Of a stretch of DNA of 64,000 nt, positions 29,559-45,006 are shown piece after piece. Numbering within the stretch: position 1 is the first letter of the stretch; the number at the start of each line of letters is the position of its first letter. The stretch lies in assembly GCA_046350415.1 (NCBI GenBank), contig JAXMAL010000001.1, forward strand, positions 1,476,782-1,540,781, given 5' to 3'. A program made the translations under genes and the position numbers. The stretch is from Phycisphaerales bacterium (lineage in GTDB: Bacteria; Planctomycetota; Phycisphaerae; Phycisphaerales; UBA1924). Below the pieces are notes generated by a model. That model was not told the origin of the DNA and ran no database searches. It saw nothing but the letters and a program-made list of their open reading frames with translations.

Positions 29559-30521
29559 TTAGAGGCGTCGACGGTAACGATCGAAGAGCACGGCGCCGAG
29601 CAGGATCGCGCCGCGTGCGATGTACTGAAAAAAGGGCTCGATGCTCTTGAGGTTCATGGCGTTCTGCACGATGCCCATGATGAGCACGCCGGCGATGACG
29701 AACTCGATGCGCCCCACTCCGCCGGTCAGGGATACGCCGCCGAGCACGCAGGCCGAGATGACCTCGAGCTCGAACCCCTGCGAGGTCATGGGCTGCCCGC
29801 TGGTCATGCGCGATGCCAGCACGACGCCGGCGAGCGCCGCGACGAAGCCCTGGAGCGCGAAGATGCCGATCTTGGCGCGATCGACGGGCACACCCGCGAG
29901 GCGTGCGGCTTGCTCGTTGCCGCCGATCGCGAGCGTGTTGCGCCCGAAGACCGTGCGCGAGAGTAGGAAGCCGAAGGCGATGAAGCACGCGATGCAGATC
30001 CACACCGGAACGGGGAGACCGAGGAACGCGGAATTGCCGAGCAGGAAAAAGGACTCCTGTCCGATTCCGACCGCCTTGCCTCCCGAGACGATGTAGGCCG
30101 CGCCGCGGACGATCTGCATCGTGGCGAGCGTCGTGATGAGGGGGTTGATGCGGGCCTTTGCGACGACCACGCCGTTCAGGAGGCCGACCGCCACGCCCGA
30201 CGCCAGGGCCGCCGCAACGCCGAGGCCGACGCTCTCGCTGGCGCGCATGACGACCGCGGCGATCACTCCCGACGCCGCCACGACGGAACCGACGGAGAGA
30301 TCAAAGTTCCCGGAGGCCAGGCAGAAGAGCATGGTGCAGCTAACCATGCCGACGGTCGAGACCGCCAGGACGAGGCCCTGCATGTTCTGGAGCGTGAAGA
30401 AGTTCGGGACCAGCAGGGAGCACGCCAGGAACAGGATGCCAAGCACGGCGAGCATGCCCGCCTGTTCCCACAAGGCGGTGATCGACGAAGGGCCATTGGC
30501 GCGTGGAGTCGTGGATGCCAT
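29559..30521 (-). CDS. araH: Sugar ABC transporter permease (AraH-like)
   Basis: 320 aa, about 10 TM. The sequence GNFDLSVGSVVA...NPLITTLATMQIVRG...GRNTLAIGGNEQAARLAGV is typical of ribose/arabinose-family permeases. It follows araG by 9 nt. Confidence 0.85.
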   Translation of the reverse strand: MASTTPRANGPSSITALWEQAGMLAVLGILFLACSLLVPNFFTLQNMQGLVLAVSTVGMVSCTMLFCLASGNFDLSVGSVVAASGVIAAVVMRASESVGLGVAAALASGVAVGLLNGVVVAKARINPLITTLATMQIVRGAAYIVSGGKAVGIGQESFFLLGNSAFLGLPVPVWICIACFIAFGFLLSRTVFGRNTLAIGGNEQAARLAGVPVDRAKIGIFALQGFVAALAGVVLASRMTSGQPMTSQGFELEVISACVLGGVSLTGGVGRIEFVIAGVLIMGIVQNAMNLKSIEPFFQYIARGAILLGAVLFDRYRRRL

Positions 30522-30530
30522 TCAGAGCAC

Positions 30531-32021
30531 TCAGGAGGAAGGCGGGAGCGCCAGGCGGAGAAGTCCTTCCTGGGTCGCTTGCGATCGATCGAACTCACCA
30601 ACGATGCGACCAAGCCGCATGACGAGAATCCTGTCGGAAACGCCCAGCACTTCGGGGAGCTCGCTGGAGACCATGAGGATACCGACGCCGCGCTCCGCGA
30701 GTCCGCGGATGATCGCGTAGACCTCGCTCTTGGCGCCGACGTCGATTCCGCGGGTGGGCTCATCGAGCATCAGCACGCGGACCCTCTCGGAGAGCAGCCG
30801 CCCGAGGATCGCCTTCTGCTGATTGCCGCCCGAGAGATTCCGAATCGCCTGCGCGGGCGACGGCGTGCGCACGCCCAGCGTGCGGATCTGCTCGTCCGCG
30901 TTGGCGCGTTCCCACGACTCGCGGATCAGCACGCCGCCCAAGGCACGATGCCGCCGGGCGCTGAGGTTGATGTTCTCGCGCACGGAGAGCACGGGGATGA
31001 TGCCGTCTTTCTTGCGGTCTTCGGTGCAGAGCAGAAGCCCGGCGCGGATGGCGTCGGCGGGCGAGCGAATCTGAAGCGGCGTGGCGTCGAGGCGCACGCT
31101 TCCGCCCCTGGGCGTCTCCGCGCCGAAGACGAGGCGCAGAAGCTCCGACCGGCCCGCCCCGACGAGCCCGAAGACGCCGACGATCTCGCCCGCGCGGACG
31201 GACAGACACACGGGAGAGGTGAGGCCGGGTCCTTCGAGTTGGTCGATCTTCAGAATTTCTGCGCCGGGAGTCCGCGGCGAGTAGGCGTACACGTCGCCGA
31301 TGTCGCGCCCCACCATGGCGCGGATGATCGTGTCGTGCCCGAGGCCTTCGAGCGATTCAAGGGTCTGCACATGCCTGCCGTCACGGAGCACGGTTGCGCG
31401 GTCGCACACGCGGAAGACCTCCTCGAGGCGATGGCTGACGTACAGGACCGCGCAGCCGCGTGCCTTCAGGCCCGCGATGACCTGGAACAGCCGCTCGATC
31501 TCGCGGGCCGAGAGGCTGCTGGTGGGCTCGTCGAACGCGATGACGCGGGCGTCGCGGCTCAGCGCCTTGGCGATCTCGATCATCTGCCGCTGGGCGAGCG
31601 GCAGCTTGGCGACGCGCGTGCCCGGATCGATCGAATCATCGAGGGGGCGGAGCAGGTCCGCCGCGAGATCACGCAGCGAGCGTCGGTCGACGAACCCCGC
31701 GCGGGACGGGAAGTGGCCGAGAAAGATGTTCTCCGCGACCGAGAGCTCGGGCACGAGGTTGAGCTCTTGGTAGATGACCGCGACGCCCGAGTGAATCGCG
31801 TCGGAAGGGCGGTCAAATGCCATCACGTCATCGTCGATCCGCAGCACGCCCGAATCGGGCCGGTACACGCCGCTCAGCACCTTGAGCAGCGTCGACTTGC
31901 CCGCGCCGTTCTCGCCCAGGAGGGCATGCACGCTCCCGGCCCTTACGTCGAGCGACACCTCTTCCAGCGCTTTCACGCCCGGAAACGACTTGGTGACGCG
32001 GTGAAAGCGGAGAAGCTTCAT
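30531..32021 (-). CDS. araG: Sugar ABC transporter ATP-binding protein, duplicated ATPase (AraG-like)
   Basis: ATG 32021 (MKLLRFHRVTKSFPGVKAL). Walker A GENGAGKST, LSGGNQQK signatures, and two nucleotide-binding domains. Its start overlaps the upstream stop as ATGA. Confidence 0.9.
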   Translation of the reverse strand: MKLLRFHRVTKSFPGVKALEEVSLDVRAGSVHALLGENGAGKSTLLKVLSGVYRPDSGVLRIDDDVMAFDRPSDAIHSGVAVIYQELNLVPELSVAENIFLGHFPSRAGFVDRRSLRDLAADLLRPLDDSIDPGTRVAKLPLAQRQMIEIAKALSRDARVIAFDEPTSSLSAREIERLFQVIAGLKARGCAVLYVSHRLEEVFRVCDRATVLRDGRHVQTLESLEGLGHDTIIRAMVGRDIGDVYAYSPRTPGAEILKIDQLEGPGLTSPVCLSVRAGEIVGVFGLVGAGRSELLRLVFGAETPRGGSVRLDATPLQIRSPADAIRAGLLLCTEDRKKDGIIPVLSVRENINLSARRHRALGGVLIRESWERANADEQIRTLGVRTPSPAQAIRNLSGGNQQKAILGRLLSERVRVLMLDEPTRGIDVGAKSEVYAIIRGLAERGVGILMVSSELPEVLGVSDRILVMRLGRIVGEFDRSQATQEGLLRLALPPSS

Positions 32022-35000
32022 TCGGGGCGAGACCTCCGGGGCGGCGAGAGCCGCGAGCGAGCGAACCGTGCGCCGAGATGCCCGGGTTCCATCGCCAGCA
32101 CCTTCGCGAAGTGCGATCTGGCGGAGTGAATCCTGCGGAGGCCCGCGAGCGCCAGCCCGCACAGGTACAACGCGTCGATGCGATTACGCCGATCGAGATC
32201 GTCGATGAACAAGAGCATGTTGGGCAGGCTGGTCGCGAAGTAGTCGATCGTGGCGGGTGCCTCGAGTTGCTTCCTGGCCGAGTCGAGCAGGCCTCGCAAT
32301 GTCCGCGTTGCTTCGGCGCGACGCCCGAGTGCCGCCTGCGCCATGCCTTTCCAATACGTCATCTCCGAGTACGAGCGGACGGCCATGCCCTGGAAGTCCG
32401 TGCCCGCGCTGGCGGCCCGATTCCACGAGTCGGCCGCGCCTCGCGCATCGCCCAGCGCCCGCAGCGCGAGGCCGAGCGAGCAGTCCAGGTGCGCGCGTGC
32501 CGCCAGCAGGTGGCGGGCCTCGCCGAGGTTGTCCGGCACACGGATCGCCGCTTCGAAGTGGTCGCGAGCGCGGTGGGCATCGCCCGCACCGAGCGCCGCG
32601 TACCCCATCAGTACCTGCGACCACTCGTGCTGCGCGAGCACCGAGCCTTCGCCGCCTTCCCACGGATGGAACCGACGCGAGGCGAGCAACGCCGCGGCCT
32701 GTTCCGGCGCGCCCGTCAGGTTGTACAGCTTCGCCAATTCGATCGAGAGATCATCGCGCCGTTCGACGAGATCAAAGTGCGCGAGCAAATGCTTGAGCCG
32801 TGACTTCGGGTCCTCACCCAGCCGCTTGCGGAGTTGATCTTGCTCATACAACAGCCGCGCGTCCGCGGGCGCGGCGCGACGGGCGGCGGCGTATGACCTT
32901 GCGGCCCTCGCGGAGTCGCCGCGGATGTTGAAATACGCGATGCCGAGATTGCGGTGCACGATCGAGAAGCCGGCGCATCCTCGCCGCGAGCGCTCCCAGC
33001 AGCGGATGGCTTCGTCGTATCGGCGCTTGTCGTAGAGCAGATTGCCGAGGTAGTATGCCGCTCGATGATCGTTCGGGGCGGCCTTGAGCGCGGACTCGAG
33101 GACCTGGATCTCTTCCAGCCTCGATGGGAAGCAGTAATCGGTCGACGCGCGACGGGCTTGGATCAGCCAGCGTGCCTGCGCGCGTGCGTCGCGGTTCTGC
33201 TCGCAAAGCCACGCCCGTGTGTACCCGAGCATGGGATGGGCGGACTCCGCACGATTCAGGAGCTTCATCGCCTCCGCGAACAGCCCCGCCTCCGCCAGGT
33301 CGAACGCAAAGTCGAGGTGCGCCTGCGCGTTCGTGACCGGGAACCGCTCGATCGACGCGAACGGATCGATCTCAATCGCCTCACGATCGACCGTGTCCGC
33401 GTCGGCATCGCGGCCCAGCCGGCGCAGGATCGCCGACATCACCAGGCGCGCCTTGTTGTGCATCCGGTTGGTGTCGAGCGAGAGGCGGAGATGCCTGAGC
33501 GCCGCTTCGTATTGGCCCGCTCGGGAGTCCAGGCATCCGATCGCGTGGAACGCCGCGCATCGCCACGCGTAGTTCCACGTCGCCTTGTACAGGGCGTCGT
33601 ACGCCTCGTCGCTCCGGCCGAGCCAACGAAGGCACAGTCCGAGGTTGTACGACGCCTCGCCGTCGTACGGGTTGGGATTTCTGCGTGTTTGAGAGGCGAT
33701 CGCGGCACGGAAGAACGGCTCCGCGAGCCTGTGCTCACCGCGGCGCATGTGGAACAGGCCCATCGCGTTGCCGGCGCGTGAATCGGACGGATCGCGGGCC
33801 AGGCACTCGCGCCAGTAGGCCTCCGGGCTTCTGGTTGCGTGGCGATACTGATCCAGATGCACGCCGGTGAGGTACAGCTCATCGCTCGAGCGCACCTGGG
33901 ACGGCGGCGGCGCGGCGGTCGCGGGTGCGGGGGCTGAGCGCCTTGGCGTGTGGACGCGAACGCACGACACGATCTCTCGCCCGTCGCGACCCAGCACGCG
34001 GGCTTTCAGATCGCCCGAGGGAAGTTCGATCGCTTCGACGAACGGCCGGCCGGGCTCGAGATCGAGTCGACGCTCGAGAACGTCTCGCCCGTTGCGGGAC
34101 AGGACCACGCGAGCGCCGTCGAAGCGCCGCGTCACCGCGACGCCGAGCCGACCGTCTTCGAGGTTGATCGCCGCGTCGAGGTTCGCCTGTTTCGCAGGGC
34201 CGATGCGCTGGATCGGGTACCAGTACTGGCTGAACGTCCGCGATTCAAACGGCATCAGCCACGAGAAATCGGGCTGGTTGTCGGTGTAGACGCCGGCCAT
34301 CAGCTCGATGTAGGGCACGCCGTCGTCGGTGAGCTCGCGATCCCACGCGTGCCCGAACTCGTGATGGCCCCAGGTCCACTGCTTCTTGCCCGGGGCGATG
34401 CGCCGATCGGCGATCTGCACGATGCCCGCCTGGGCCTTGTGGTCGTATCCGCCGAGGAAGTCGCACGTACTGCCCATCGCCATGTACGACGTCGGCACGG
34501 GGATGTTCGCGTACCACGTCAGGTCGTCCGCGGGCCCGAGCGCACCGAACGGATTGTCGCGCCGGCGGGCGCGCGAGGCGTAGTCCACTCCGTAGTACGT
34601 GCCCGAGCAGCGCGGGAACGTGCTCATGGCGCGGCGTGCGTGGTCGGCGACGTGCGTGACGTCCCGCGGAAAGAACGACTGATACTGCTCGTGCACCGCC
34701 GTCGCGACGTTCGCCCACCAGAGAAACGTCTGCGGGAGGGGCGTGCGGTTGTAGATCTGCCCGCGGAGTTCAAGGGCGGCCCGTCCCGGGCGCAGGCACA
34801 CGCCGTGCATGCCCTTCAGGCGGTTCATCGGCTCGTGCTCCGAGAGCCAGATCGTCTTTGAGCCGTCGTCGCCCTCCTCGATCCGGCACTCCGTCGGCAT
34901 GTACGTCGTCGGGCGATGATGCTGCGGCCAGTTGATCTCGATGCCGCCGGAGATCCAGGGGCCGAGCAGCCCGACCAGCGCGGGCTTGATCACCTTCTGG

Positions 35001-35314
35001 TTGTAGATGAAGTCGTAACCGTTGGACCGATCGCGCGCGATGTGGATGCGCCCGCCGATGTCGGGGAGCACCATGACGTACAGGTGCCCGTTGTCGATGT
35101 GAACGGCGCGCCAGGACTTCGGAACCGGGGAGTGCGAGACGCGATCCGTTACCGGGAGGGGGTACACGCGCCCGCTGCTCCCCTGGTAGACGCGTCGCTC
35201 GAGGAACATAGGGTTGGGATCGGGCGGCGGGACCTCGTAGGTCGGGAGTGTGACCGCCTCTTCCCACGCGCGCACCGGCGCTCCCTCACGCTCACTCCGC
35301 TTCGCGGGCTTCAT
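32018..35314 (-). CDS. DUF5107-domain protein fused to a long TPR region (1098 aa)
   Basis: ATG 35314: the N-terminus VRAWEEAVTLPTYEVPPPDPNPMFLERRVYQGSSGRVYPLPV...ALVGLLGPWISGGIEINWPQHHRP...RTPLPQTFLWWAN matches my memory of the DUF5107 family. The C-terminal ~600 aa are TPR-like (AYYLGNLLY, NLGIAYF, etc.). Confidence 0.75.
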   Translation of the reverse strand: MKPAKRSEREGAPVRAWEEAVTLPTYEVPPPDPNPMFLERRVYQGSSGRVYPLPVTDRVSHSPVPKSWRAVHIDNGHLYVMVLPDIGGRIHIARDRSNGYDFIYNQKVIKPALVGLLGPWISGGIEINWPQHHRPTTYMPTECRIEEGDDGSKTIWLSEHEPMNRLKGMHGVCLRPGRAALELRGQIYNRTPLPQTFLWWANVATAVHEQYQSFFPRDVTHVADHARRAMSTFPRCSGTYYGVDYASRARRRDNPFGALGPADDLTWYANIPVPTSYMAMGSTCDFLGGYDHKAQAGIVQIADRRIAPGKKQWTWGHHEFGHAWDRELTDDGVPYIELMAGVYTDNQPDFSWLMPFESRTFSQYWYPIQRIGPAKQANLDAAINLEDGRLGVAVTRRFDGARVVLSRNGRDVLERRLDLEPGRPFVEAIELPSGDLKARVLGRDGREIVSCVRVHTPRRSAPAPATAAPPPSQVRSSDELYLTGVHLDQYRHATRSPEAYWRECLARDPSDSRAGNAMGLFHMRRGEHRLAEPFFRAAIASQTRRNPNPYDGEASYNLGLCLRWLGRSDEAYDALYKATWNYAWRCAAFHAIGCLDSRAGQYEAALRHLRLSLDTNRMHNKARLVMSAILRRLGRDADADTVDREAIEIDPFASIERFPVTNAQAHLDFAFDLAEAGLFAEAMKLLNRAESAHPMLGYTRAWLCEQNRDARAQARWLIQARRASTDYCFPSRLEEIQVLESALKAAPNDHRAAYYLGNLLYDKRRYDEAIRCWERSRRGCAGFSIVHRNLGIAYFNIRGDSARAARSYAAARRAAPADARLLYEQDQLRKRLGEDPKSRLKHLLAHFDLVERRDDLSIELAKLYNLTGAPEQAAALLASRRFHPWEGGEGSVLAQHEWSQVLMGYAALGAGDAHRARDHFEAAIRVPDNLGEARHLLAARAHLDCSLGLALRALGDARGAADSWNRAASAGTDFQGMAVRSYSEMTYWKGMAQAALGRRAEATRTLRGLLDSARKQLEAPATIDYFATSLPNMLLFIDDLDRRNRIDALYLCGLALAGLRRIHSARSHFAKVLAMEPGHLGARFARSRLSPPRRSRPE

Positions 35315-36414
35315 TCCTTGGTGATCCCCTGTTCCTTCAGCACCCGGCGGAAGTTGGCGCGATCGATCAGGATGCCCGAGGTCCGCGTGTCCGTGGGCGG
35401 CGCCTTGCCCTCGGCGACCCAGCGATACACCATCTCCGCGGTCTCGTAGCCGTGACGCTTGGGCGTGAGCAGCACCGACGCGAAGAAGCCGGTGGGCGTG
35501 GGCTTCTCGAACTCCACGATGCAGTCCGTGCCGTTGATGCCGATGCCCACGACGCTTTCGGCGGTCAGACCGCGGCCTTCCATGGCGCGCACCGCGCCCA
35601 TGACGGCGCTGTCGTTCATGCCGCACACCAGCCACTTCTTGACCTCGGGCTTCTGAGTCAAGAGCACGTTGACCGCGTCGAACGATCCCGGCACGTCGCT
35701 GGTCTTCTGGGCCGCCTTGTAGATGCGATCCGCGGGGAAGCCCGCCGCGGCGAGGGCGGCCATCGCGCCGTCGGTGCGTTCCTTGGCGGTGTCGAGTTCC
35801 TCAAAGGTCACGACGCACGCGCCGGCTTCTCCCGGCGTCCAGCCGCGCTTCTTGCACTCGTCGGCCAGCGCCTTGCCGACCGATTCGCCGATGGTGCGCG
35901 CCGAAATGCCCAGGTGCGCGACCTGCGTCATTGGCTTGCCGTCCGCGCCGATGAGCTGATCATCGACCGTCATGAACTTGAGGTTGTTCCGGCCGGCCGC
36001 CGCGACGATCGCGGGCCCGAGACGGACGTCGGGCGTGCAGATCACGAATCCCTTGGCGCCCGCGGCCGCGAGATTGTCGATCGCCGCGAGCGTCTTCTCG
36101 CCGTCGGCCGCGCCGATCTTGATGAGTTCGAATCCGTTCTTGGCGGCGGCCTCGTCGGCGAATCGCCACTCCAACTGGAACCAGGGCTCCTCGGGCTGCT
36201 TGACGACGAACCCGATCTTCACCTTCTCGCCGCCCGAGCCGCCCGAGCCGCCCGAGCCGCCCGAGCCGCCCGCAGACCCGCCGCCGGGCGCGGGCGTTGG
36301 CGAAGTGCTTGAAGGCGCGCCCTTCTCGCACGCGACCAGGCACACCGTGACCGCCGCGAGCATCGAGAACAGAGCCCGGCACGAAAGAATCCAGTTCGGT
36401 CGGATGTTGATCAT
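35311..36414 (-). CDS. araF: L-arabinose-binding periplasmic protein (AraF-like) as a lipoprotein with a Gly/Ser linker
   Basis: Colinear with E. coli AraF as I remember it: GFVVKQPEEPWFQLEWRFAD...DGEKTLAAIDNLAAAGAKGFVICTPD...WLVCGMNDSAVMGAVRA...IGIGINGTD. Lipobox LVAC, then GGSAGGSGGSGGSGGSGG. Confidence 0.9.
   Translation of the reverse strand: MINIRPNWILSCRALFSMLAAVTVCLVACEKGAPSSTSPTPAPGGGSAGGSGGSGGSGGSGGEKVKIGFVVKQPEEPWFQLEWRFADEAAAKNGFELIKIGAADGEKTLAAIDNLAAAGAKGFVICTPDVRLGPAIVAAAGRNNLKFMTVDDQLIGADGKPMTQVAHLGISARTIGESVGKALADECKKRGWTPGEAGACVVTFEELDTAKERTDGAMAALAAAGFPADRIYKAAQKTSDVPGSFDAVNVLLTQKPEVKKWLVCGMNDSAVMGAVRAMEGRGLTAESVVGIGINGTDCIVEFEKPTPTGFFASVLLTPKRHGYETAEMVYRWVAEGKAPPTDTRTSGILIDRANFRRVLKEQGITKE
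36231..36266. repeat. Tandem 9-bp repeat (CGCCCGAGC x4) encoding the (GGS)n linker of AraF
   Basis: Four perfect 9-mers read directly in the sequence. They are in-frame and lie inside the araF coding region. Confidence 0.85.
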
Positions 36415-36557
36415 CGAGATCTCCTCAGGAATCGTCCGGGCGCGGGTGTCCTCGCCCGGCGCAGTCTACACCCGCGCGGGGCCCGTTGACCACCCGCGCC
36501 GAGTTAGGGAAAACTGGCGGCACGCACGAGAGGAATTCAAAGGCAGCGCGCCGGCGT

Positions 36558-39500
36558 CTACTTGAGCTCCGCGTTCATCACCGCTTCCAACCGCACCGGG
36601 CCGATCAGCCCCGATTCGAGCAGCGGCGAGTCCTTGGACCACAGACGCCAGCTCGTAAAGGTGAATCGCCCGCTCGGGCTCGGCTTTGTTCCCGACAGCC
36701 ATTCCGGCCAGCGCTTCAGCGTGCCGCCCGGGTTGCGGTCGGAATCCTCCGCGAGCTGCTCGTCCCCGATCATGCGGTTCACCCACAGATTCGTCACGCG
36801 AACCTCGAGCGAGTTCTCGCCCGCTTTGAGCGCGTCGGTCACGTCAACGCGATAGGGAGATCTCCACAGCACGCCGAGGTCGCGCCCGTTGAGCGAAACC
36901 TCCGCGATCACCGCCACATTGCCAAGGTCGAGCCAGACCCTTCGCCCCTGGCCCAGGAGCTCCGGCGGCACGCTGATCGTCTTGCGATACGAGGCGGTTC
37001 CGGAGAAGTACCGAGCACCGGGCTGCTCGAGCGTGCTCCACGACTTCAACTCGGGCAGCGTGAGCTTGTCCGGCGCGCCCCAGCGCGGCGGGAAACTCAG
37101 CTCCCACGCCCCCTTGATCTCCAGAGGTTCAGGAATCGATGCGATGTTCACCTCGCCGCTCCGCCCGGAACTCCAGCGAACGCCGTATTTTCCCGGGCGG
37201 CTGGCTTCAAGAATCGTGCGTCCCTGTGCATCGATGCTCAACTCCGCCGGGCGCGAGGGCGAGACCAGAAGGTGCATCGTCTCGGGGTCGGTGGCGCTGG
37301 CGGTGCGTGCGACGCCGTCGAGCGTGTACTCGACGCGCAGCGTCTTCACGACGTTGTACGCGGGGTCGTCCCCCTCGGCCATCCGCCGCACCCTGAACTC
37401 GTACTCGCCGCGGTCCGCGAGCTGCTGCAGCTTCGACGTCACATTCCGCGTGCGAGCGGCGTCGCCGGGCACGCCGTAGCTTGCCGAGCGAACCACGAGC
37501 GTGTGCGAGACGCTTTCGAGACGGATGATCTCCGGGTCGGTCGCGCTGACCGTGCGAGGCTTGCCGTTGGTTGTGTACTCGATGCGGAGCGTCTTGATGA
37601 CGCCGTACGCGGGGTCTCCCTCGCGGGCGAGCGACGCGACGCGGAACGCGTGCGTGCCGCGTGCCGTCATGGCGCGGACCTGCGCGGTGACGTCCTTGGT
37701 CCTTGCCTGGTCGTTCGCCGGGCCCCAGGTCGCGTGCTGCACGACGACCTTCGCGGGCGTTGCGACCGGCCCGCCGATCGGCTCGTTGTCGCGCGTGAAG
37801 GAAACCACGTGGTCCGTTGACGCGTTCGAGCCGCGGCGGAACACGACGAACACCGATTCCGCGGGACCCAGCGAGAGCGGCACGAGGGTCTGCTTGCCGC
37901 TGGCCTCGTACATCGCGGCCGGCTTTGAGTCCCCCGTCTCGGCGTTCCAGAGCTCCGGGCGGAGGCCGGAGACGCGGAACGCGCACGTCGCCGCGACGGG
38001 GCGCGACGAGATGTTCGCGACGAAGTACAACTCGCCGTCGCTCAGGGTCCGATGGATGTACCGCAGGTCCGATGGATCGTCGCTCCCGCGTGCCTCAAAG
38101 TCCGGTGGCACTCCCATCGCCGCGAGTGTCTGCTCGGCGCTCTGGCCGCGAATGACTTTGCCTCGTCCGATCGCGTGCTCCGCGCCGGGCCTTGCGTCTT
38201 CCTTGCCCCACAACTGGGCCGCCAGCTCGCGAACCTGCTGGTCGCACGCGGGATACCCCGACAGGCTCGGCGATTTCTCGGGCCGATCGCCGATCACTGT
38301 CAGCCCCGCCTCCGCCAGCTCCTTCACGCGGCGCAGCAGTTCCGGCGTCATCGTTGCGACCGCGGGCAGCACGAGCACGCGATACCGCATCGCGTCCGAA
38401 AGAACCAGCTCGTTGTTCTCAACCCTGCTGTGGTGCAGGATGACGTCCGGAGGGCAGGCGTCGAAGTTGTACCCGCCGCGCACGGGCGGCGACCCGTCGG
38501 CCATCGCGGAGGGAGGCACAAAGTGCTGCGGCGAGCCCTCCGGCGCCAGGTAGCAGATGTCCGCGACGAACCGACCCTGCCTGAGCAGGTACTGGCAGCG
38601 AGAGAGATACTCGTGCCATGGCTTGGACTGGTCCCACCACGTCTGCGTGCGTTCGTAGTGAAGGCCCCACGGGCCCATCGTCATGCCGGGGCGCCGGTCG
38701 ATCCAAGGCTGCATCGCGTACCGATGGAACACGAACCGGTTGATACCTTCACAGAACGCCCAGTCGCCCATCGCCTTGATCGAGCCCGGGTGGTCGCGCC
38801 ATCGCTCCTGGTCGTTGGCCGTGAAGGCCTCCGCGCCGAGAATCGGCTTGTTGTAGACGTGGGCCGCGGAGGCCATCACCGTGCAGGTGTCGGCCGCCCC
38901 GTACGCCCCGTACGACCAGAACTCGCACATCGGCTCGTCCGCGGTCCCCGCATACGCCATGTCGTCGGCGGGCTCGCCGTAGGCCTCGATGGAGAGGCGG
39001 ATGCCGTGCTGTTTCGCGAGTTCCTGCGTGTGTCGCGCGTAGTTCTCGATGATGAGATCGGACACCGTGAGACGCAGGTCCCACAGGAAGCGCTCGGAGA
39101 CCTCCAGCGAGTCAACCACGCGCCCGCTCATGACCGGGAGCAGCATCAGCGGGTCGTAGCCGCGAAGGCGTTTGAACTCCTCACGCATCTTCGCGGTCCA
39201 GTTCTGCGTGCTGACTTCCCAGCTGTCGATGTGCGTGCTGACGAGCGTCGGACCCGCCAGCGGGCCGACATCCGCGATCAATCGTCCCATCAACCCCGCG
39301 AACGCCGCCTCCGATCCTTCCTTGCTCAGCTTGTCGCACTCAAGCCCGCGCCCGCTTGCGGGCGATGGCAGATTGACCGCGCCCGTCGACGTGTGCCCGA
39401 ATCGCATGATGACCCACTTGCCCGCGGGCACCTGCCACGAGAGCGTGCCTTCGGCGCTCATCTTGCCGGAAAGATCGACCATGCGATCGCGCGCGATCGC

Positions 39501-40253
39501 GGCGCTCGCCGCGGTCGCAGGAATCATGCCTGTCGGCGCGACCGGGCCGGGAGTCGGGCCCGCGCCGTACAGCGCCTTGTCGACAAGCCCCTCGATCCGC
39601 AGCGGCTTGCCACCCTTGGCTTCATCGTCGGGTACCGGCACTGCGAGCACCGCGATGTCTCGATAAAAGCCCGCGGCGGTTGCGGGCGTCGCCAGCGTGC
39701 CCTTGAACGCGCCCGGACCCTCGAATGGAGTCTCGGACCACACCACCTTCTGCATCGACTGCTCGGGCTTGATCCACGGCCCGCCGCTCCCGCACCAGCC
39801 CGCGTCGTCGTTCATGTTGATCTGAAGGCCAAGGCGGGCCGCCTCGGCGCACGCGTGCTTGAACAGCTCGCGCCACTCCGCGCTCGCGAACCCGATCGGT
39901 CCTTCCGGTGCGCCCTGATCGACCTCCATGATGAGCACGCCGCCGATCCCCACGCGTGCCATCGCCTCAAGGTCGAGCGTGATCCCTTCTCGCGTGATGT
40001 TGCCATTGAGCCAGAACCAGTAGACCCACGGGCGAGCGTCGCTCGGCGGGCTCTTGAAGTTCGGCATGAGCAACGCCACATCGTCTTTGCCTTCGCTCGC
40101 ACGCGCGGACGTTTGGCTGGAGCTTGAGCGACCGATCGCAATCTCAGGCGTGAACGCTTGACCCGACGCGGCCTGGACTTCAGCGTTCGGGGTGTGCGCG
40201 ACCATGATCGCGGCAAGGGCCGCGACCCCGATAAATGGATTGGACTTCAACAT
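36558..40253 (-). CDS. Large secreted glycoside hydrolase (GH106-like alpha-L-rhamnosidase family, tentative) with internal tandem domains and a C-terminal galactose-binding-like domain
   Basis: Signal peptide. The N-terminal block ARPWVYWFWLNGNITREGITLDLEAMARVGIGGVLIMEVD is what I recall from GH106-type 'glycosyl hydrolase' proteins. Two ~85-aa repeats are present, and the C-terminus (WLDLGNVAVIAEVSLNGRDLG) has a jelly-roll pattern. Confidence 0.8.
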   Translation of the reverse strand: MLKSNPFIGVAALAAIMVAHTPNAEVQAASGQAFTPEIAIGRSSSSQTSARASEGKDDVALLMPNFKSPPSDARPWVYWFWLNGNITREGITLDLEAMARVGIGGVLIMEVDQGAPEGPIGFASAEWRELFKHACAEAARLGLQINMNDDAGWCGSGGPWIKPEQSMQKVVWSETPFEGPGAFKGTLATPATAAGFYRDIAVLAVPVPDDEAKGGKPLRIEGLVDKALYGAGPTPGPVAPTGMIPATAASAAIARDRMVDLSGKMSAEGTLSWQVPAGKWVIMRFGHTSTGAVNLPSPASGRGLECDKLSKEGSEAAFAGLMGRLIADVGPLAGPTLVSTHIDSWEVSTQNWTAKMREEFKRLRGYDPLMLLPVMSGRVVDSLEVSERFLWDLRLTVSDLIIENYARHTQELAKQHGIRLSIEAYGEPADDMAYAGTADEPMCEFWSYGAYGAADTCTVMASAAHVYNKPILGAEAFTANDQERWRDHPGSIKAMGDWAFCEGINRFVFHRYAMQPWIDRRPGMTMGPWGLHYERTQTWWDQSKPWHEYLSRCQYLLRQGRFVADICYLAPEGSPQHFVPPSAMADGSPPVRGGYNFDACPPDVILHHSRVENNELVLSDAMRYRVLVLPAVATMTPELLRRVKELAEAGLTVIGDRPEKSPSLSGYPACDQQVRELAAQLWGKEDARPGAEHAIGRGKVIRGQSAEQTLAAMGVPPDFEARGSDDPSDLRYIHRTLSDGELYFVANISSRPVAATCAFRVSGLRPELWNAETGDSKPAAMYEASGKQTLVPLSLGPAESVFVVFRRGSNASTDHVVSFTRDNEPIGGPVATPAKVVVQHATWGPANDQARTKDVTAQVRAMTARGTHAFRVASLAREGDPAYGVIKTLRIEYTTNGKPRTVSATDPEIIRLESVSHTLVVRSASYGVPGDAARTRNVTSKLQQLADRGEYEFRVRRMAEGDDPAYNVVKTLRVEYTLDGVARTASATDPETMHLLVSPSRPAELSIDAQGRTILEASRPGKYGVRWSSGRSGEVNIASIPEPLEIKGAWELSFPPRWGAPDKLTLPELKSWSTLEQPGARYFSGTASYRKTISVPPELLGQGRRVWLDLGNVAVIAEVSLNGRDLGVLWRSPYRVDVTDALKAGENSLEVRVTNLWVNRMIGDEQLAEDSDRNPGGTLKRWPEWLSGTKPSPSGRFTFTSWRLWSKDSPLLESGLIGPVRLEAVMNAELK

Positions 40254-40714
40254 GGCCCTGCCCTCGTGGTATCGGAGGCGCCCTGGGGGTAGAGACCACG
40301 CTCCACCCCGGTATGGGGGAGTCTAGGAAGCACGGAGCGGCCGCCGGTGTCAGGAAGTTCGTCAGAATTGGCGCGAGGCCGCGGGGGGCTGACGGCGTTT
40401 TCGGCAGATCGAGCGATGGCATCTCGCATCCGGCGGGTGATAGAAGTTGCAATCTTGTGTCTGTCAAGGCTCCCGGGTCTTCAGCGAATCGTCCCGGCAC
40501 ATGAAGTTTGTTCCACATCACTCCCATTTAGGGTGTACTCGATGCGCGGCGCTCTCTTCAAACCTGGCATGGAGTGGCTTGACAACACGCTCCTTCATGA
40601 CAGAAACACATCACCTTAGCAACATTCGGAGCAACCGCGCGATTGGGATGCCGGTATCATGGATGTGGCATACGGCGCGGATCGGCGGCGAACCGGAACA
40701 GCAAGGAGTTCATC

Positions 40715-42379
40715 ATGGGCAAGGCACGGTCGATTCATCTCGGACTGAACTCGGTCGATCCCGAACACTATTCGGGCTGGTCGGGCCAACTCAACGCGTG
40801 CGAACAGGACGCGCGAGACATGCTTCGACTCGCGATGAACCGGGGAGTCACGACAAACGCCGTGTTGCTGACGCGCGACGCGACGGTCGCGAGGTTCGAG
40901 CAGGCGATGCGCGAGGCCCAGGCATCGCTCGGCGCCGGCGACCTTCTCCTCATCAGCTACTCCGGGCACGGCGGGCAGGTCCCGGACCGAAACGGCGACG
41001 AGGCCGACGGAAAGGACGAGACCTGGTGCTTGTTCGATCGCGAGTACGTCGACGACGAGTTGTTCGACCTCTTCGCGGGCTTTGCGCCGGGCGTCCGGAT
41101 CGTGGTGCTTTCGGACTCGTGCCACAGCGGGACCGTCGCGCGCGTCGCCGAGTATCGCGGATTTGCCCCCGATTCGACGACCGCGTATCGCTGCATGCCC
41201 AGCGATCGAGCCACGATGGTGTATGAGCAACACCGGCGCCTGTACGACGCGATCCAGGCCCGGACCCGTGGCGGGCGTCGTTCCCAGGACGGGGCGAGCG
41301 TGCTCCTGATTTCGGGCTGCCAGGATTCGCAGCTTTCGATGGACGGTGATCGCAACGGCTTGTTCACCTCCAAGCTCCTCGAAGTGTGGAACAACGGGCT
41401 ATTCAAGGGCTCCTATCGCCGGCTCCACTCGCTCATCAAGGCCCGTATGCCGTCGACGCAGGTACCCAACCTCTTCCAGTGCGGAGCACCTGATGACGCG
41501 TTCCCCGAACTCGAAGCCTTCGATCCGGGTGCGAGCGGTGACATGCGGCGCGACGACGATCCATCCGGGCTCTGGAGGCGCGGGCTCCCGCTGGTGGACT
41601 ACCCGGTGCGGACGCAGGAGCCCGGAATCCGCGCGGCCCGCGAGCCGGGCGACATACCCCCGGGTCTTCCGACCGGGTTGAACGAGTTGCCGCAGGCGAT
41701 GAACCGCGTGTTTGACCTCTCGGTGACGGGCGCGATGTCGCTTGGGATTCCGATCGCGGGCTCGGTCTCGGGCGGCGGTTCGCGTCATGTGCTTGTGCTT
41801 GAGCGCTGCGCGTTCAAGGTGCTCAAGTCCGGCACTGGTCTGACCCAGGAATGGGGGTACGCGATCCGGTTCTGCCTTACCGTCAACAAGTTCGACGCCT
41901 CGATGAAGCTGACGCTCCCGTTCCTGGCGGCATCGGCGGAAGTAGGGAGCATCGAGGCGCAGTGGATGCTTCAGGTCATCGGTCTCGGCGGGCCCAAGAT
42001 TGACGCGGTATCGCTCCCGCCGACCGAACTCAACGTCGAGACCTTCGTGCTCGCCAAGCAAAGCCTGGCGGCGCTCATCGGCGCGGTTCGTGACCCGGAC
42101 ACCGTGTTCACGCCCCAATGCCTGCGGGAGATCACACCGGCGGATCAGCGGGATCTCGCGTTGCGCCGCGCGGTCGCGCACACCGTCGCGCTCGACGCGA
42201 TCGCGGACGGCGTCACGCTCGAGCGGGCTCAGAAGCGAGCGGCCGACCCGCTCGCGGCCGACGTGATCCGCGACATGTACCACGACATCGCGGGCATCGA
42301 TGTGCCCACGCTCGAGCCCTCGTCGAACGCGCGCGCGGAGGCCAGGCGGTTGCTCGGGCGGGTCGACCTGAGTTTCTGA
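40715..42379 (+). CDS. Caspase-like (peptidase C14, orthocaspase) protease fused to an unrecognised C-terminal domain (554 aa)
   Basis: ATG 40715 with AAGGAG 6 nt upstream. The caspase dyad is YSGHGG (His codon 40967-40969) and VVLSDSCHSG (Cys codon 41120-41122). After a P/G/R-rich linker, aa ~330-554 match no motif I recognise. Confidence 0.85.
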   Translation: MGKARSIHLGLNSVDPEHYSGWSGQLNACEQDARDMLRLAMNRGVTTNAVLLTRDATVARFEQAMREAQASLGAGDLLLISYSGHGGQVPDRNGDEADGKDETWCLFDREYVDDELFDLFAGFAPGVRIVVLSDSCHSGTVARVAEYRGFAPDSTTAYRCMPSDRATMVYEQHRRLYDAIQARTRGGRRSQDGASVLLISGCQDSQLSMDGDRNGLFTSKLLEVWNNGLFKGSYRRLHSLIKARMPSTQVPNLFQCGAPDDAFPELEAFDPGASGDMRRDDDPSGLWRRGLPLVDYPVRTQEPGIRAAREPGDIPPGLPTGLNELPQAMNRVFDLSVTGAMSLGIPIAGSVSGGGSRHVLVLERCAFKVLKSGTGLTQEWGYAIRFCLTVNKFDASMKLTLPFLAASAEVGSIEAQWMLQVIGLGGPKIDAVSLPPTELNVETFVLAKQSLAALIGAVRDPDTVFTPQCLREITPADQRDLALRRAVAHTVALDAIADGVTLERAQKRAADPLAADVIRDMYHDIAGIDVPTLEPSSNARAEARRLLGRVDLSF

Positions 42380-42630
42380 ATCGCGCCCGCGAGATAGCTC
42401 GAGCCACGGCGTGCCGCGGCTCGTCGGCCTGGGCCGAGGAAGCCCGGCCCGCACCATAGCTCAGCAGAGCGTCGGCATCACTGCGCTCGATCGCAAGCAG
42501 CCTCGCGATTCCGCGAGGGGGATTCGCCCCGTTCCCATTCATCCGGCTATGCTCAGTTGGTCATGACCATTTGCGATACTCGTTCGATCAGACCGCACCA
42601 TCGCGCGTCGTAGCCCGCCGTGGAGGTCCC

Positions 42631-45006
42631 ATGAAACTCAGAAGATCGAGCCTGCTCGCCAGCGTCCTCTCACTCGTCGGCGCCGCGATCGCGGCCGCCC
42701 AGTCCTCACCGCCCGCGACGCCCCCACCATCGACGACGGTACCCGCGCACACGTTCTCGATCGGCCCGACCGATTTCATGCTCGACAGCAGGCCGTTCCT
42801 CATCCGCTCCGGCGAGATGCACGCCGCCCGAATCCCGAAGGAATACTGGCGGCATCGTCTTCAGATGGTGCGCGCGATGGGCTGCAACACCGTCTGCGCG
42901 TACCTCTTCTGGAATCAGCACGAGCCGCGCGAGGGAGAGTTCGACTTCACGGGCCAGGCCGACGTCGCGGAGTACTGCCGGATCGCGCAGGAGGTCGGGC
43001 TCTGGGTGATCCTGCGCCCGGGTCCATACTCGTGCGCCGAGTGGGAGTTCGGCGGCTTCCCGTGGTGGCTCCTGAAGAACCCGGAACTCAAGCTGCGCAC
43101 GCGCGATCCCGCGTACCTCGCCGCCCTGAACCGATACGTCGCCAAGGTCGGCGAGCAGCTCGTGCCGCTCCAGATCGATCGCGGTGGCCCGATCATCATG
43201 GTGCAGGTCGAGAACGAGTACGGCAGCTACGGCAACGACAAGGAGTACATCGGGCTCCTGCGCGATCAGCTGCGCAAGGTGGGCTTCGGCGTGCCGCTCT
43301 TCACCTGCGACGGACCTTCCCAGCTCCCCAACGACACGCGCCCGGAAATCTTCTGCGTCGTGAACTTCGGCGGCGATCCCGAGGGCTGCTTCAAGGCGCT
43401 CCGCGCCATCCGCCCCGAGGGCCCGCTCATGTGCGGCGAGTTTTATCCCGGCTGGTTTGATTCATGGGGCGCACCCCACCATCGCGGGAGCGTTGACGCC
43501 GTCGTCCGCGATCTTCGCTTCATGCTCGAGCACAACCAGTCGTTCAGCATCTACATGGTCCACGGCGGAACATCCTTCGGCTACAGCGCGGGCGCCAACG
43601 CGCCGCCCTTCCGCCCACAGAGCACGAGCTATGACTACGACGCGCCCATCGACGAGGCCGGCCGGCGCACGCCGAAGTTCGACGCGATCCGCGAGCTCTT
43701 CTCGGCTCACCTCCAGCCGGGTGAAACGCTCCCCGACGCCCCCGCCGCGCATCCGATCATCTCGTTCCCGCGCGTGAACCTGCAGTCCGCGGCTCGCCTG
43801 TGGGACAATCTCCCATCGCCGGTCCACGCCGACCAGCCGCGCACGATGGAACTGCTCGACCAGGGCGGCGGATGCATCCTTTACCGAACCGTGCTCCCCC
43901 CGGGCGCCGCGGGCACGCTCGCCGTGCGCGAGCCGCACGACATCGCCCAGGTCCGCATCGACGGCACGCTCGTCGGCGTTCTTGACCGTCGGTACAACAA
44001 GACATCCCTGGCGATCCCGGCTCGCGAGAAGCCCGCTCGCCTCGACATCTTCGTCGAAGCCATGGGACGCGTGAACTACGGCGGCCAGATCCACGACCGC
44101 AAGGGCATCACGAGCAAGGTCGAACTCGTCTCGTCGGGCTCGACGACGGAGCTCCGCAATTGGGAGATGTTCTCGCTCCCGCTCGATGCGCCGTGCGTTG
44201 CGGGCCTGACGTACGCGCCCGCGTCCAAGCCGCTCGGCGCTCCCGCGGCGTACCGCGGCACATTCGAACTCAAGAATGTCGGCGACACGTTCCTGGACAT
44301 GCGCACCTGGACGCGCGGCGCCGTCTGGATCAACGGGCACGCCATCGGGCGCTACTGGAACATCGGCCCGCAGCAGACGCTCTATGTTCCCGGTTGCTGG
44401 CTCCGCAAGGGCAACAACGAGGTCATTGTGCTCGACACCATCGGCTCGGCCGGCCAAGCCGGCGTCGAAGGCCTGGCCGCGCCGATCCTCGATCAAGTCC
44501 AGCCCGATCCGCTCGCGCCAACCGGGCACCGCAAGCCCGGCCAGGCGCTGAAGCTCGATGATCTCAAGCCGCTGGCCGAGGGCGAGTTCCCGCGTGGCAA
44601 GGAATGGCAGGTCGCAAAGTTCGCGCCGACGCCGGCGCGGTTCGTGTGCCTGGAAGCGCTGAGTTCGAACAAGCCCGACGAGTTCACGACGCTCGCGGAG
44701 TTGGAGGTTCTTGACGCGGAGGGCAAGCCGCTGTCACGCGACGGCTGGTCGGTCGCGTACGCCGACAGCGAGGAGCTCGGCGCGGAAGAGGGCGCTTCCG
44801 ACAACGTGCTCGACTCGAACGCCGCGACGTTCTGGCACACGCAATGGCAGGACGCCAAGCCGCATCATCCGCACGCGATCGTGATCGACATGGGTTCGAC
44901 ACGAACGATCACGGGCGTGCGCAGCCTGCCGCGCCAGGATAGCCCGAACGGACGGATCGGAAGGTACCGCGTCTTCGCGTCGACGGCTCCAATGCCGGAT
45001 TTGTAG
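42631..45006 (+). CDS. GH35 beta-galactosidase with a C-terminal F5/8 type C (discoidin) domain
   Basis: ATG 42631 with a signal peptide. GH35 blocks are present: GEMHAARIPKEYWRHRLQMVRAMGCNTV, YLFWNQHEP, RPGPYSCAEWEFGGFPWWL and QVENEYG (catalytic Glu). The C-terminus has NVLDSNAATFWHTQW. Confidence 0.9.
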   Translation: MKLRRSSLLASVLSLVGAAIAAAQSSPPATPPPSTTVPAHTFSIGPTDFMLDSRPFLIRSGEMHAARIPKEYWRHRLQMVRAMGCNTVCAYLFWNQHEPREGEFDFTGQADVAEYCRIAQEVGLWVILRPGPYSCAEWEFGGFPWWLLKNPELKLRTRDPAYLAALNRYVAKVGEQLVPLQIDRGGPIIMVQVENEYGSYGNDKEYIGLLRDQLRKVGFGVPLFTCDGPSQLPNDTRPEIFCVVNFGGDPEGCFKALRAIRPEGPLMCGEFYPGWFDSWGAPHHRGSVDAVVRDLRFMLEHNQSFSIYMVHGGTSFGYSAGANAPPFRPQSTSYDYDAPIDEAGRRTPKFDAIRELFSAHLQPGETLPDAPAAHPIISFPRVNLQSAARLWDNLPSPVHADQPRTMELLDQGGGCILYRTVLPPGAAGTLAVREPHDIAQVRIDGTLVGVLDRRYNKTSLAIPAREKPARLDIFVEAMGRVNYGGQIHDRKGITSKVELVSSGSTTELRNWEMFSLPLDAPCVAGLTYAPASKPLGAPAAYRGTFELKNVGDTFLDMRTWTRGAVWINGHAIGRYWNIGPQQTLYVPGCWLRKGNNEVIVLDTIGSAGQAGVEGLAAPILDQVQPDPLAPTGHRKPGQALKLDDLKPLAEGEFPRGKEWQVAKFAPTPARFVCLEALSSNKPDEFTTLAELEVLDAEGKPLSRDGWSVAYADSEELGAEEGASDNVLDSNAATFWHTQWQDAKPHHPHAIVIDMGSTRTITGVRSLPRQDSPNGRIGRYRVFASTAPMPDL

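Follow-up and report, generated by a model that had tools for sequence, protein, structure and literature searches.

We analysed a 64,000-nucleotide stretch of contig JAXMAL010000001.1 from a Phycisphaerales bacterium (hereafter the window), in which the gene at 40715..42379 encodes a 554-amino-acid (aa) protein, P0002, composed of a caspase-like protease, a linker and a C-terminal domain. The C-terminal domain belongs to a protein family that is tied, by gene adjacency or fusion, to at least six MEROPS families of protease. A role as a dedicated protease client is the best-supported interpretation, because only a role indifferent to the catalytic class explains partners from serine, cysteine and three metallo-peptidase families, and we consider it likely that the domain is a protease-licensed effector or substrate. 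The parts of the fusion protein are:

40715..42379, + strand: coding sequence of the 554-aa caspase-linker-domain fusion P0002, with five full-length homologues (P0003-P0007)
40763..41482, + strand: Peptidase_C14 (orthocaspase) domain, aa 17-256 (Pfam PF00656, E=4.8e-23)
40967-40969, + strand: catalytic His85, in the YSGHGG motif
41120-41122, + strand: catalytic Cys136, in the SDSCHSG motif
41540..41638, + strand: disordered Pro/Gly/Arg/Asp-rich linker, aa 276-308 (predicted local distance difference test, pLDDT, <50 in the full-length AlphaFold2 model)
41639..41641, + strand: Arg309 (AAR↓EPGDIP), putative P1 residue if the protein cuts itself at the domain boundary; a basic residue recurs here in all caspase-linked members
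41648..42376, + strand: C-terminal domain of the protease-linked family, aa ~312-554 (AlphaFold2 model and family search)
41693..41980, + strand: beta core of this domain, aa 327-422, a four-strand antiparallel meander (AlphaFold2 secondary structure)
41993..42355, + strand: mostly helical C-terminal half of this domain, aa 427-547 (AlphaFold2; helices aa 441-457, 476-497, 512-526 and 537-547)

The C-terminal domain family and its association with proteases

An original prediction, made from the sequence alone, had described the C-terminal region as unrecognised and outside the usual partners of orthocaspases. This description held: the 235-265 residues matched no model in Pfam (E<=10), NCBIfam (E<=1) or PADLOC (E<=1), a 77-sequence family profile searched against all PDB chain sequences (E<=10) returned noise only and no gasdermin chain, and the domain proved to be an independent mobile module. 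Matches to arginine kinase and alphaRep at E>=0.008 were discarded as noise. Residues 320-554 served as query for phmmer in an exhaustive search of 1.84 billion cluster representatives (clusters at 50% identity), which returned 290 proteins at E<=1e-3, 98 at E<=1e-10 and 50 at E<=1e-30. The length of nearly all of them is 230-330 aa, and the homologous part spans roughly residues 50-290; the domain is normally a separate protein of ~280 aa with a ~50-aa leader. In a collection clustered at 90% identity, all 66 clusters in the matching length band were named "hypothetical protein" and none had a precomputed Pfam domain. No description of a related protein family was found in the literature. Besides the fusions to C14, the search revealed P0156 (573 aa), in which an Aspzincin_M35 metallopeptidase (Pfam E=7e-41) precedes the family domain, and P0240, a tandem duplicate of the domain with a signal peptide.

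Loci encoding family members were taken from species genomes (12) and metagenomes (32), together with several exact look-ups and one more from the window's phylum; the genome scan used 16 closer sequences, and open reading frames (ORFs) were called and their neighbours annotated. A peptidase gene directly adjoined the domain gene in 11 of about 28 informative non-redundant loci, which gives a binomial tail of ~3e-7 at a generous background of 6% for either neighbour being a peptidase. With few exceptions the adjoining peptidase genes shared the strand of the domain gene, in many cases only a few bases away; the spacing is operon-like, with 4 bp between the genes in L006, for example. Matches to local S8 and C14 models were concentrated at the directly adjacent position. 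The protease links are:

S8 subtilase downstream of the domain gene: L005, L006/L025/L026, L010 (=L034), L029
S8 subtilase upstream of the domain gene: L001 (catalytic GTSMAAPHVAG), L027
Peptidase_C14 upstream of the domain gene: L013/L014/L045, L043
Papain-family C1 (plus DUF5648) upstream of the domain gene: L020
Matrixin M10 downstream of the domain gene: L028
Reprolysin-like M12 fused to TPR repeats, upstream of the domain gene: L047
Domain fused to C14: window, P0003-P0007, L017
Domain fused to Aspzincin_M35: P0156

Signal peptides are absent from the proteases of L006, L010, L005 and L029 (S8), L020 (C1) and L013 (C14), and the metalloproteases of L028 (M10) and L047 (M12) carry an N-terminal hydrophobic anchor. 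In PADLOC, partner proteases matched the models "subtilase" (E down to 5e-25) and "caspase" (E=3e-21).

Several other neighbours were recorded in the same loci. In two unrelated loci (L032, 4387-6423; L066, 7527-8903) the domain gene precedes a gene for a histidine kinase on the same strand, and a bacterial alpha-2-macroglobulin gene adjoins the domain gene convergently in L041 (2822-4639, - strand) and L042 (4123-5394, - strand). Alpha-2-macroglobulins are broad protease traps. The caspase encoded ahead of the stand-alone domain gene in L013/L014/L045 (6007-7875) and L043 (635-2476) has an N-terminal ~260-aa part resembling an alpha/beta-hydrolase (HGVG…GHSLGS; Pfam Abhydrolase_6 E=7e-6 in L014), and alpha/beta-hydrolases are among the known protease-licensed effectors (PMC12642450). 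In L039, the gene directly after the domain gene (3602-5233) encodes a multi-pass membrane protein of 544 aa that has the lipase-like motifs HGVG and HSQGS and no Pfam match; a relationship between this protein and the N-terminus of the L013 caspase found no support by BLASTP. Resistance-nodulation-division (RND) efflux operons (OEP, membrane-fusion protein, AcrB) stand just downstream of the caspase fusion P0007 (L062, 3981-8292) and of a stand-alone member (L012, 9125-14794), possibly by coincidence. Type I secretion, which the OEP genes near L012 and L062 had suggested, was rejected on the grounds that these genes belong to the RND pumps. Long ORFs beside L011, L012, L021 and L024 appear to be artefacts of high GC content.

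The caspase half, the linker and a candidate self-cleavage site

The orthocaspase domain and intact His-Cys dyad of the original prediction were borne out. The Peptidase_C14 score of aa 17-256 is 82.5 bits against a gathering cut-off of 21.4 bits, with the dyad residues in YSGHGG (aa 82-87) and SDSCHSG (aa 133-139). The full-length AlphaFold2 model was built with a 120-row alignment (mean pLDDT 86; predicted template modelling score, pTM, 0.56), and its residues 1-275 form a caspase-hemoglobinase domain. The best Foldseek match of this half is GSU0716 of Geobacter sulfurreducens (PDB 3BIJ; E=3e-32, 52% identity, TM 0.92), followed by metacaspases 9 and 4, Yca1 and MCA2 from plant, yeast and trypanosome (E 1e-14 to 1e-8). 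From its sequence, the N-terminal half appears to be an active clan CD orthocaspase of the Arg/Lys type, and by analogy with its relatives it would prefer Arg or Lys at P1. With the NCBIfam model of EACC1-associated caspases (NF047832) it scored 29.8 bits, below the curated cut-off of 140 bits, and with the PADLOC model "caspase" 26.7 bits.

The caspase domain is common to >1,400 proteins at about 50% identity, mostly single-domain proteins of ~305 aa; some homologues bear PG_binding_1 or other tails. Two lone caspases of the same clade were looked up and found to be solitary among housekeeping genes. P0002 belongs to the GSU0716 clade by its N-terminal domain. GSU0716-type enzymes are single-domain or fused to PG_binding_1; only ~6 clusters bear the C-terminal domain studied here. 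Other unnamed partners occur in the clade: P0048, P0072 and P0101 (571-578 aa) have a different C-terminal module without Pfam annotation, a ~120-aa repeat present twice (…RYYAVEVTTNPYYF…NFFASWKTPPF…LYYRVW…), and P0073 (593 aa) has an unannotated C-terminal region of ~250 aa that, by eye, is unrelated to the domain.

The fusion itself is conserved. P0003-P0007 are five independent clusters with 49-85% identity to P0002 across 100% of its length, all of which keep both domains and the His/Cys dyad; a sixth copy was found on metagenome contig L017, and the source genome has a single copy. The Pro/Gly/Arg-rich linker proposed in the original prediction corresponds to aa 276-308, disordered in the AlphaFold2 model, according to which the two folded parts would be beads on a string with no fixed packing. 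Linkers of fusions and leaders of stand-alone members share semi-conserved LW(G/R), including LWG(D/E), and aromatic-x-Pro motifs; the leader of stand-alone P0122, for example, contains LWGD and aromatic-x-P (MGSDRNEDLWGDSPVRLNGWKVSP). These short motifs, common to both, show the linker to be the former leader. In both kinds of fusion (C14 and M35) the protease is N-terminal to the domain, and the junction falls at the position of the leader of stand-alone members.

In all caspase-linked members (window, P0003-P0007, L013, L043) a basic residue is found 4-7 aa ahead of the first conserved motif of the domain, and among S8-linked members such a residue occurs in 1 of 5. The boundary sequences are:

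Window: AAR309↓EPGDIP
P0003: PRGPGDVP
P0004: RRDASIP
P0005: KRDGLNSIP
P0007: ARDVSKIP
L013: LRSPSPYPF
L043: TRGAAPFPF

Metacaspases and orthocaspases cut after Arg or Lys (PMC6426788), and for the bacterial caspase-like protease LcCaspase, cleavage of the effector at R↓G has been demonstrated (PMC12642450). The boundary residue, taken with this specificity of relatives, suggests that P0002 may cleave itself after Arg309, at the end of the disordered stretch, a suggestion drawn from small numbers of sequences.

Predicted structure of the C-terminal domain

The domain alone, modelled by AlphaFold2 with the 77-sequence alignment, reached a pLDDT of 93.7 and a pTM of 0.82. The model agrees with the original description of a beta-rich part followed by a helical tail: the four strands of the meander (aa 327-336, 357-371, 377-391 and 414-422; domain positions 8-17, 38-52, 58-72 and 95-103) precede the helical half. 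The beta1-beta2 and beta3-beta4 connections both lie at one end of the sheet and are enlarged into inserts. The first (aa 337-356) is Gly/Ser-rich (…LGIPIAGSVSGGGS…), and the second (aa 392-413) contains the LPFLAASA helix, within the most conserved motif of the family, K-L-[ST]-L-P-F-L-A-A-S-A. The beta-type hydrophobic moment, averaged over the 77 sequences, peaks on the inserts (domain positions 72-84 and 16-28) and not on the modelled strands, a pattern that would be expected of segments stored as coil or helix and able to refold into amphipathic hairpins. Only A340, G381, R385 and G423 (window numbering) are invariant among the 77 members. None of the invariant positions is occupied by Asp, Glu, His, Ser or Cys, so the domain is probably not an enzyme; the lack of an invariant polar residue of catalytic type argues against such a function at the sequence level.

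In a Foldseek search of the domain model against the PDB, ranks 1-8, 10, 13 and several more were membrane attack complex/perforin (MACPF)-type or cholesterol-dependent cytolysin (CDC)-type pore-formers, with E 0.025-3 and TMq 0.24-0.37. These weak matches comprised 5imw (E=0.025, probability 0.77), suilysin, TgPLP1, an aegerolysin-partner pore and anthrolysin O, and further C9, Plu-MACPF, Mpf2Ba1 and Bth-MACPF; the listed MACPF/CDC group had TMq 0.35-0.37. The topology of the domain is compatible with the bent sheet of MACPF/CDC proteins, at structural matches that lie below significance. Gasdermin entries (9a84, 8sl0 and 6vfe, the pore state) appeared only at E 1.6-3.1 and TMq 0.07-0.08, and the viral structure library gave incoherent matches only (probability <=0.14).

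Genomic locus and distribution of the fusion gene

The gene and its surroundings are laid out as follows:

36558-40253, - strand: GH106 alpha-L-rhamnosidase gene (Pfam scan), upstream flank of the fusion gene
40254..40714, no strand: spacer of 461 bp that separates the fusion gene from the divergent GH106 gene, GC 0.60
40703..40708, + strand: Shine-Dalgarno sequence AAGGAG, read directly from the sequence, with a 6-nucleotide spacer to the ATG
42571-45006, + strand: GH35 beta-galactosidase gene (Pfam scan), downstream flank of the fusion gene

The open frame extends from 40643 to 42379 (+ strand); the ATG at 40715 was taken as the functional start, and the stop codon ends at 42379. The perfect ribosome-binding site, the AT-richer upstream region of ~460 bp (GC 0.60 against 0.66 for the window) and the position between two glycoside hydrolase (GH) genes were all correctly recognised in the original prediction. 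The promoter is presumably located in the spacer, in which Rfam gave no match at E<=1, neither a sigma-70 consensus nor a terminator was seen, and no small ORF conserved among relatives was found. A 103-aa ORF upstream of the P0007 fusion, considered as a possible partner, is a low-quality frame that is not present in the window.

The gene had also been said to be less GC-rich than its flanks. This was incorrect: the gene body has a GC content of 0.664, indistinguishable from the window (0.661) and the GH genes (0.670-0.671), and its GC content at third codon positions (GC3) is 0.838 against a median of 0.852. The composition of the gene is native and only the spacer deviates; the argument for insertion from GC content was therefore dropped. 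The wider claim of acquisition survives on distribution and synteny. None of the 40 nearest genomes, 4 from the genus, 20 from the family and 16 from the order, had the domain, and of 401 genomes drawn from across the phylum only 2 had it. In the sister-species genome G002, the GH35 orthologue (85% identical) directly follows the orthologue of window gene 29559-30521. Relative to GH35, a block of ~10.5 kb (29564-40065), holding an AraFGH-like transporter, a DUF5107-TPR gene and GH106, is inverted between the window and this same-genus genome (L058/L059, G002:C4). Positions 40066-42615 of the window have no counterpart in G002, and the G002 sequence beyond GH106 has none in the window. The inversion and this unrelated sequence rule out a clean insertion with a simple empty site in G002, and the history of the locus is one of rearrangement plus presence/absence. 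No flanking direct or inverted repeats and no mobile-element genes were found at the fusion gene. The fusion gene is an ameliorated, sporadic accessory gene at a rearrangement junction and is not native to the glycan locus; the best explanation is that it has no functional tie to the adjoining glycan-hydrolase genes.

Proposed mechanism and alternative interpretations

The non-enzymatic character of the domain, its N-terminal leader or linker, the intracellular partners, the patchy distribution and the two refoldable amphipathic inserts together suggest a latent effector that would be freed by removal of the leader. The most probable type of effector would be a membrane-permeabilising oligomer. 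In stand-alone members the ~50-aa leader, and in the window protein the linker, would keep the domain inert until the partner protease cuts just ahead of the first beta-strand; in P0002 the cut would probably be made by its own caspase domain, after Arg309. The released domain would uncover an edge strand and oligomerise, and the two amphipathic inserts would turn into beta-hairpins that pierce the membrane of the cell, with death or arrest as the outcome, following the logic of gasdermin, EACC1 and CDC-like (CDCL)/MACPF effectors. That the gene is a cytoplasmic single-chain protease-effector module whose domain attacks the membrane from within seems to us a serious prospect, slightly short of an even one. 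A bolder form of the proposal is tentative and on the doubtful side: the domain might found a family of miniature perforin/CDC-like pore-forming executioners, kept latent by a leader and open to licensing by nearly every kind of intracellular protease encoded with them (S8, C14, C1, M10, M12, M35), with the window gene as the extreme form, a bacterial counterpart of caspase plus gasdermin in one polypeptide, in which self-cleavage alone suffices to kill.

A number of observations weigh against a protease-licensed membrane executioner. No adjacent protease was found in 17 of the ~28 informative stand-alone loci, where the neighbours included GH9, an enolase-superfamily enzyme, a radical SAM protein and FlgO/CsgG, as well as histidine kinases (twice), DHHA1, DUF6526 and alpha-2-macroglobulin. 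In the full-length AlphaFold model the linker is not docked into the caspase active site, and no sensor domain is present in the window protein. Signal peptides occur on P0164, P0191 and P0240, and those of P0164 and P0191 suit an extracellular role better. The immediate neighbours at the window locus and at most related loci are housekeeping or glycan genes, with no recognisable defence genes. The Foldseek search of the domain against the PDB, a check proposed with the original prediction, gave nothing at E<=1e-3 (best E 0.025, TM-scores 0.29-0.37), and neither the MACPF signature (Y/W)G(T/S)H(F/Y)x6GG nor the CDC undecapeptide occurs in any of the 77 family members. The assignment as a pore-former, based on topology and a coherent list of low-scoring matches to the model, is thus a weak one, and with no significant match and no signature motif we keep the perforin/CDC-like reading as a lead and not as a result.

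The link to conflict systems made in the original prediction was not substantiated. Beyond the glycan and housekeeping neighbours, no association with defence islands or phage sensors was found in the annotated neighbourhoods of the window and related loci, and a scan of viral contigs revealed no member of the family. The same prediction had proposed a protease-plus-effector or protease-plus-sensor module; recurrent adjacency and fusion to proteases speak for the former (effector or substrate), and the latter found no support, as neither ligand-binding nor repeat character is seen in the domain. One partner protease, that of L047, carries TPR repeats. Elsewhere in the window, an ABC-type ATPase gene (30531-32162, - strand) matched the PADLOC models of mad3 and an AriA-type ATPase (E=3e-36), most likely through generic P-loop similarity and not as a defence gene.

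The domain could instead be a non-lethal protease partner, i.e. a dedicated substrate, regulator, bait-type inhibitor or folding helper, for example in a signalling or stress-response switch, with no attack on membranes. The protease linkage fits any dedicated substrate or regulator equally well, and the housekeeping-like contexts, the histidine-kinase genes of L032 and L066, the alpha-2-macroglobulin gene of L041/42 and the insignificance of the structural match to pore-formers all agree with such a role. However, it would be unusual for an inhibitor or chaperone to work regardless of class, on serine, cysteine and three families of metallo-proteases; the inserts, which are long, amphipathic and rich in Gly/Ser, and the lack of conserved catalytic or binding residues on the surface suit a refolding effector better, and a rare and patchy distribution is atypical of a core regulatory device. 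We regard a non-lethal role as unlikely, if still of some weight.

A pro-toxin directed against other cells (a pore-former aimed at bacteria or at eukaryotes), which a co-encoded protease would mature as in CDCL, BSAP or aerolysin-type toxins and which would have the fused caspase as its maturase, appears improbable. The partner families S8, C1, M10, M12 and M35 are classically secreted, signal peptides on three family members (P0164, P0191, P0240) and hydrophobic anchors on the L028 M10 and L047 M12 enzymes would fit export, and protease-activated MACPF/CDC-like antibacterial toxins provide a precedent (PMC11952106; bioRxiv 10.64898/2026.08.05.742979). Against this, the window protein, most family members and most adjacent proteases lack a signal peptide, no receptor-binding domain is present, and no secretion-system genes lie nearby, the OEP genes of L012 and L062 being parts of RND efflux pumps. 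The signal-peptide minority would also allow for both an intracellular and an exported branch of the family. Finally, the fusion is hardly the result of chance read-through or faulty assembly, nor a decaying functionless gene: although the source genome has only one copy and the architecture is rare, the reading is already contradicted by the five conserved homologous clusters with both domains and the dyad, and the open frame with its strong Shine-Dalgarno sequence and native codon bias (GC3 0.84) and the confident folding of both domains in the model also speak against it.

Comparison with known protease-licensed effectors

Protease-licensed death effectors are a common bacterial logic, and EACC1 and Pepco are pore-formers of this kind (PMC12642450). 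Bacterial gasdermins are encoded beside C14 or S8 proteases (Johnson et al., bioRxiv 10.1101/2021.06.07.447441). Like them, the present family consists of non-enzymatic proteins of ~250-300 aa, found beside intracellular C14 and S8 proteases that match the PADLOC models "caspase" and "subtilase", with a sporadic distribution and a single activating cut expected. Unlike gasdermins, the domain has no gasdermin sequence, profile or fold match (Foldseek E~2, TM<0.1), its putative inhibitory, variable and protease-facing piece is N-terminal and not a short C-terminal peptide, and an N-terminal Cys, palmitoylated in gasdermin, occurs within the first 8 residues in only 2 of 76 family members. In the window protein, moreover, effector and protease form one chain.

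In CDCLs, the oligomerisation edge is covered by an N-terminal activation loop, which clan CD C11 proteases take off (PMC11952106); removal of an N-terminal pro-segment is also what we propose for the domain, which by Foldseek weakly resembles CDCL/MACPF proteins, in what may be a bent four-strand sheet with two clusters that might unfurl. The domain differs from them in being about half the size, in the absence of their signature motifs and of a membrane-targeting domain 4 and signal peptide, and in an apparently cell-autonomous, non-secreted mode of action; statistically, the similarity falls short of significance. As in the ten families surveyed by Evans et al. (PMC12642450; including MBL, alpha/beta-hydrolase, Pepco, EACC1, CATASP, MPE, PCaspase, CalpT and Csx30), where the effector gene travels with a caspase-like or serine protease, site-specific cleavage licenses the effector and caspase-like partners cut after Arg (R↓G), recurrent adjacency or fusion of effector and protease was found here (11 of ~28 loci and fusions to two protease families). 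However, the domain is none of the ten, Pepco and EACC1 are ~115 aa long, no NCBIfam or PADLOC model matches it, and most of its partner proteases lack STAND, TPR or another sensor. The effector family is new, being missing from Pfam, NCBIfam, PADLOC and that survey; the protease-effector logic was already known. A fusion of caspase and effector in one chain without a sensor is unusual.

The fusion gene, then, is not part of the glycan locus that surrounds it. Protease-gated death effectors such as gasdermins, EACC1, Pepco and MBL nucleases are an emerging main theme that joins bacterial and animal immunity, and the domain shows the same genomic signature as these effectors, its range of partner proteases being unusually wide. 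Should it be a pore-former, it would represent a third lineage of protease-activated pore proteins in bacteria, and the window gene would be a compact, self-contained caspase-executioner fusion. If it is not, it would still define a conserved and as yet unnamed family of protease substrates or regulators that deserves a name.

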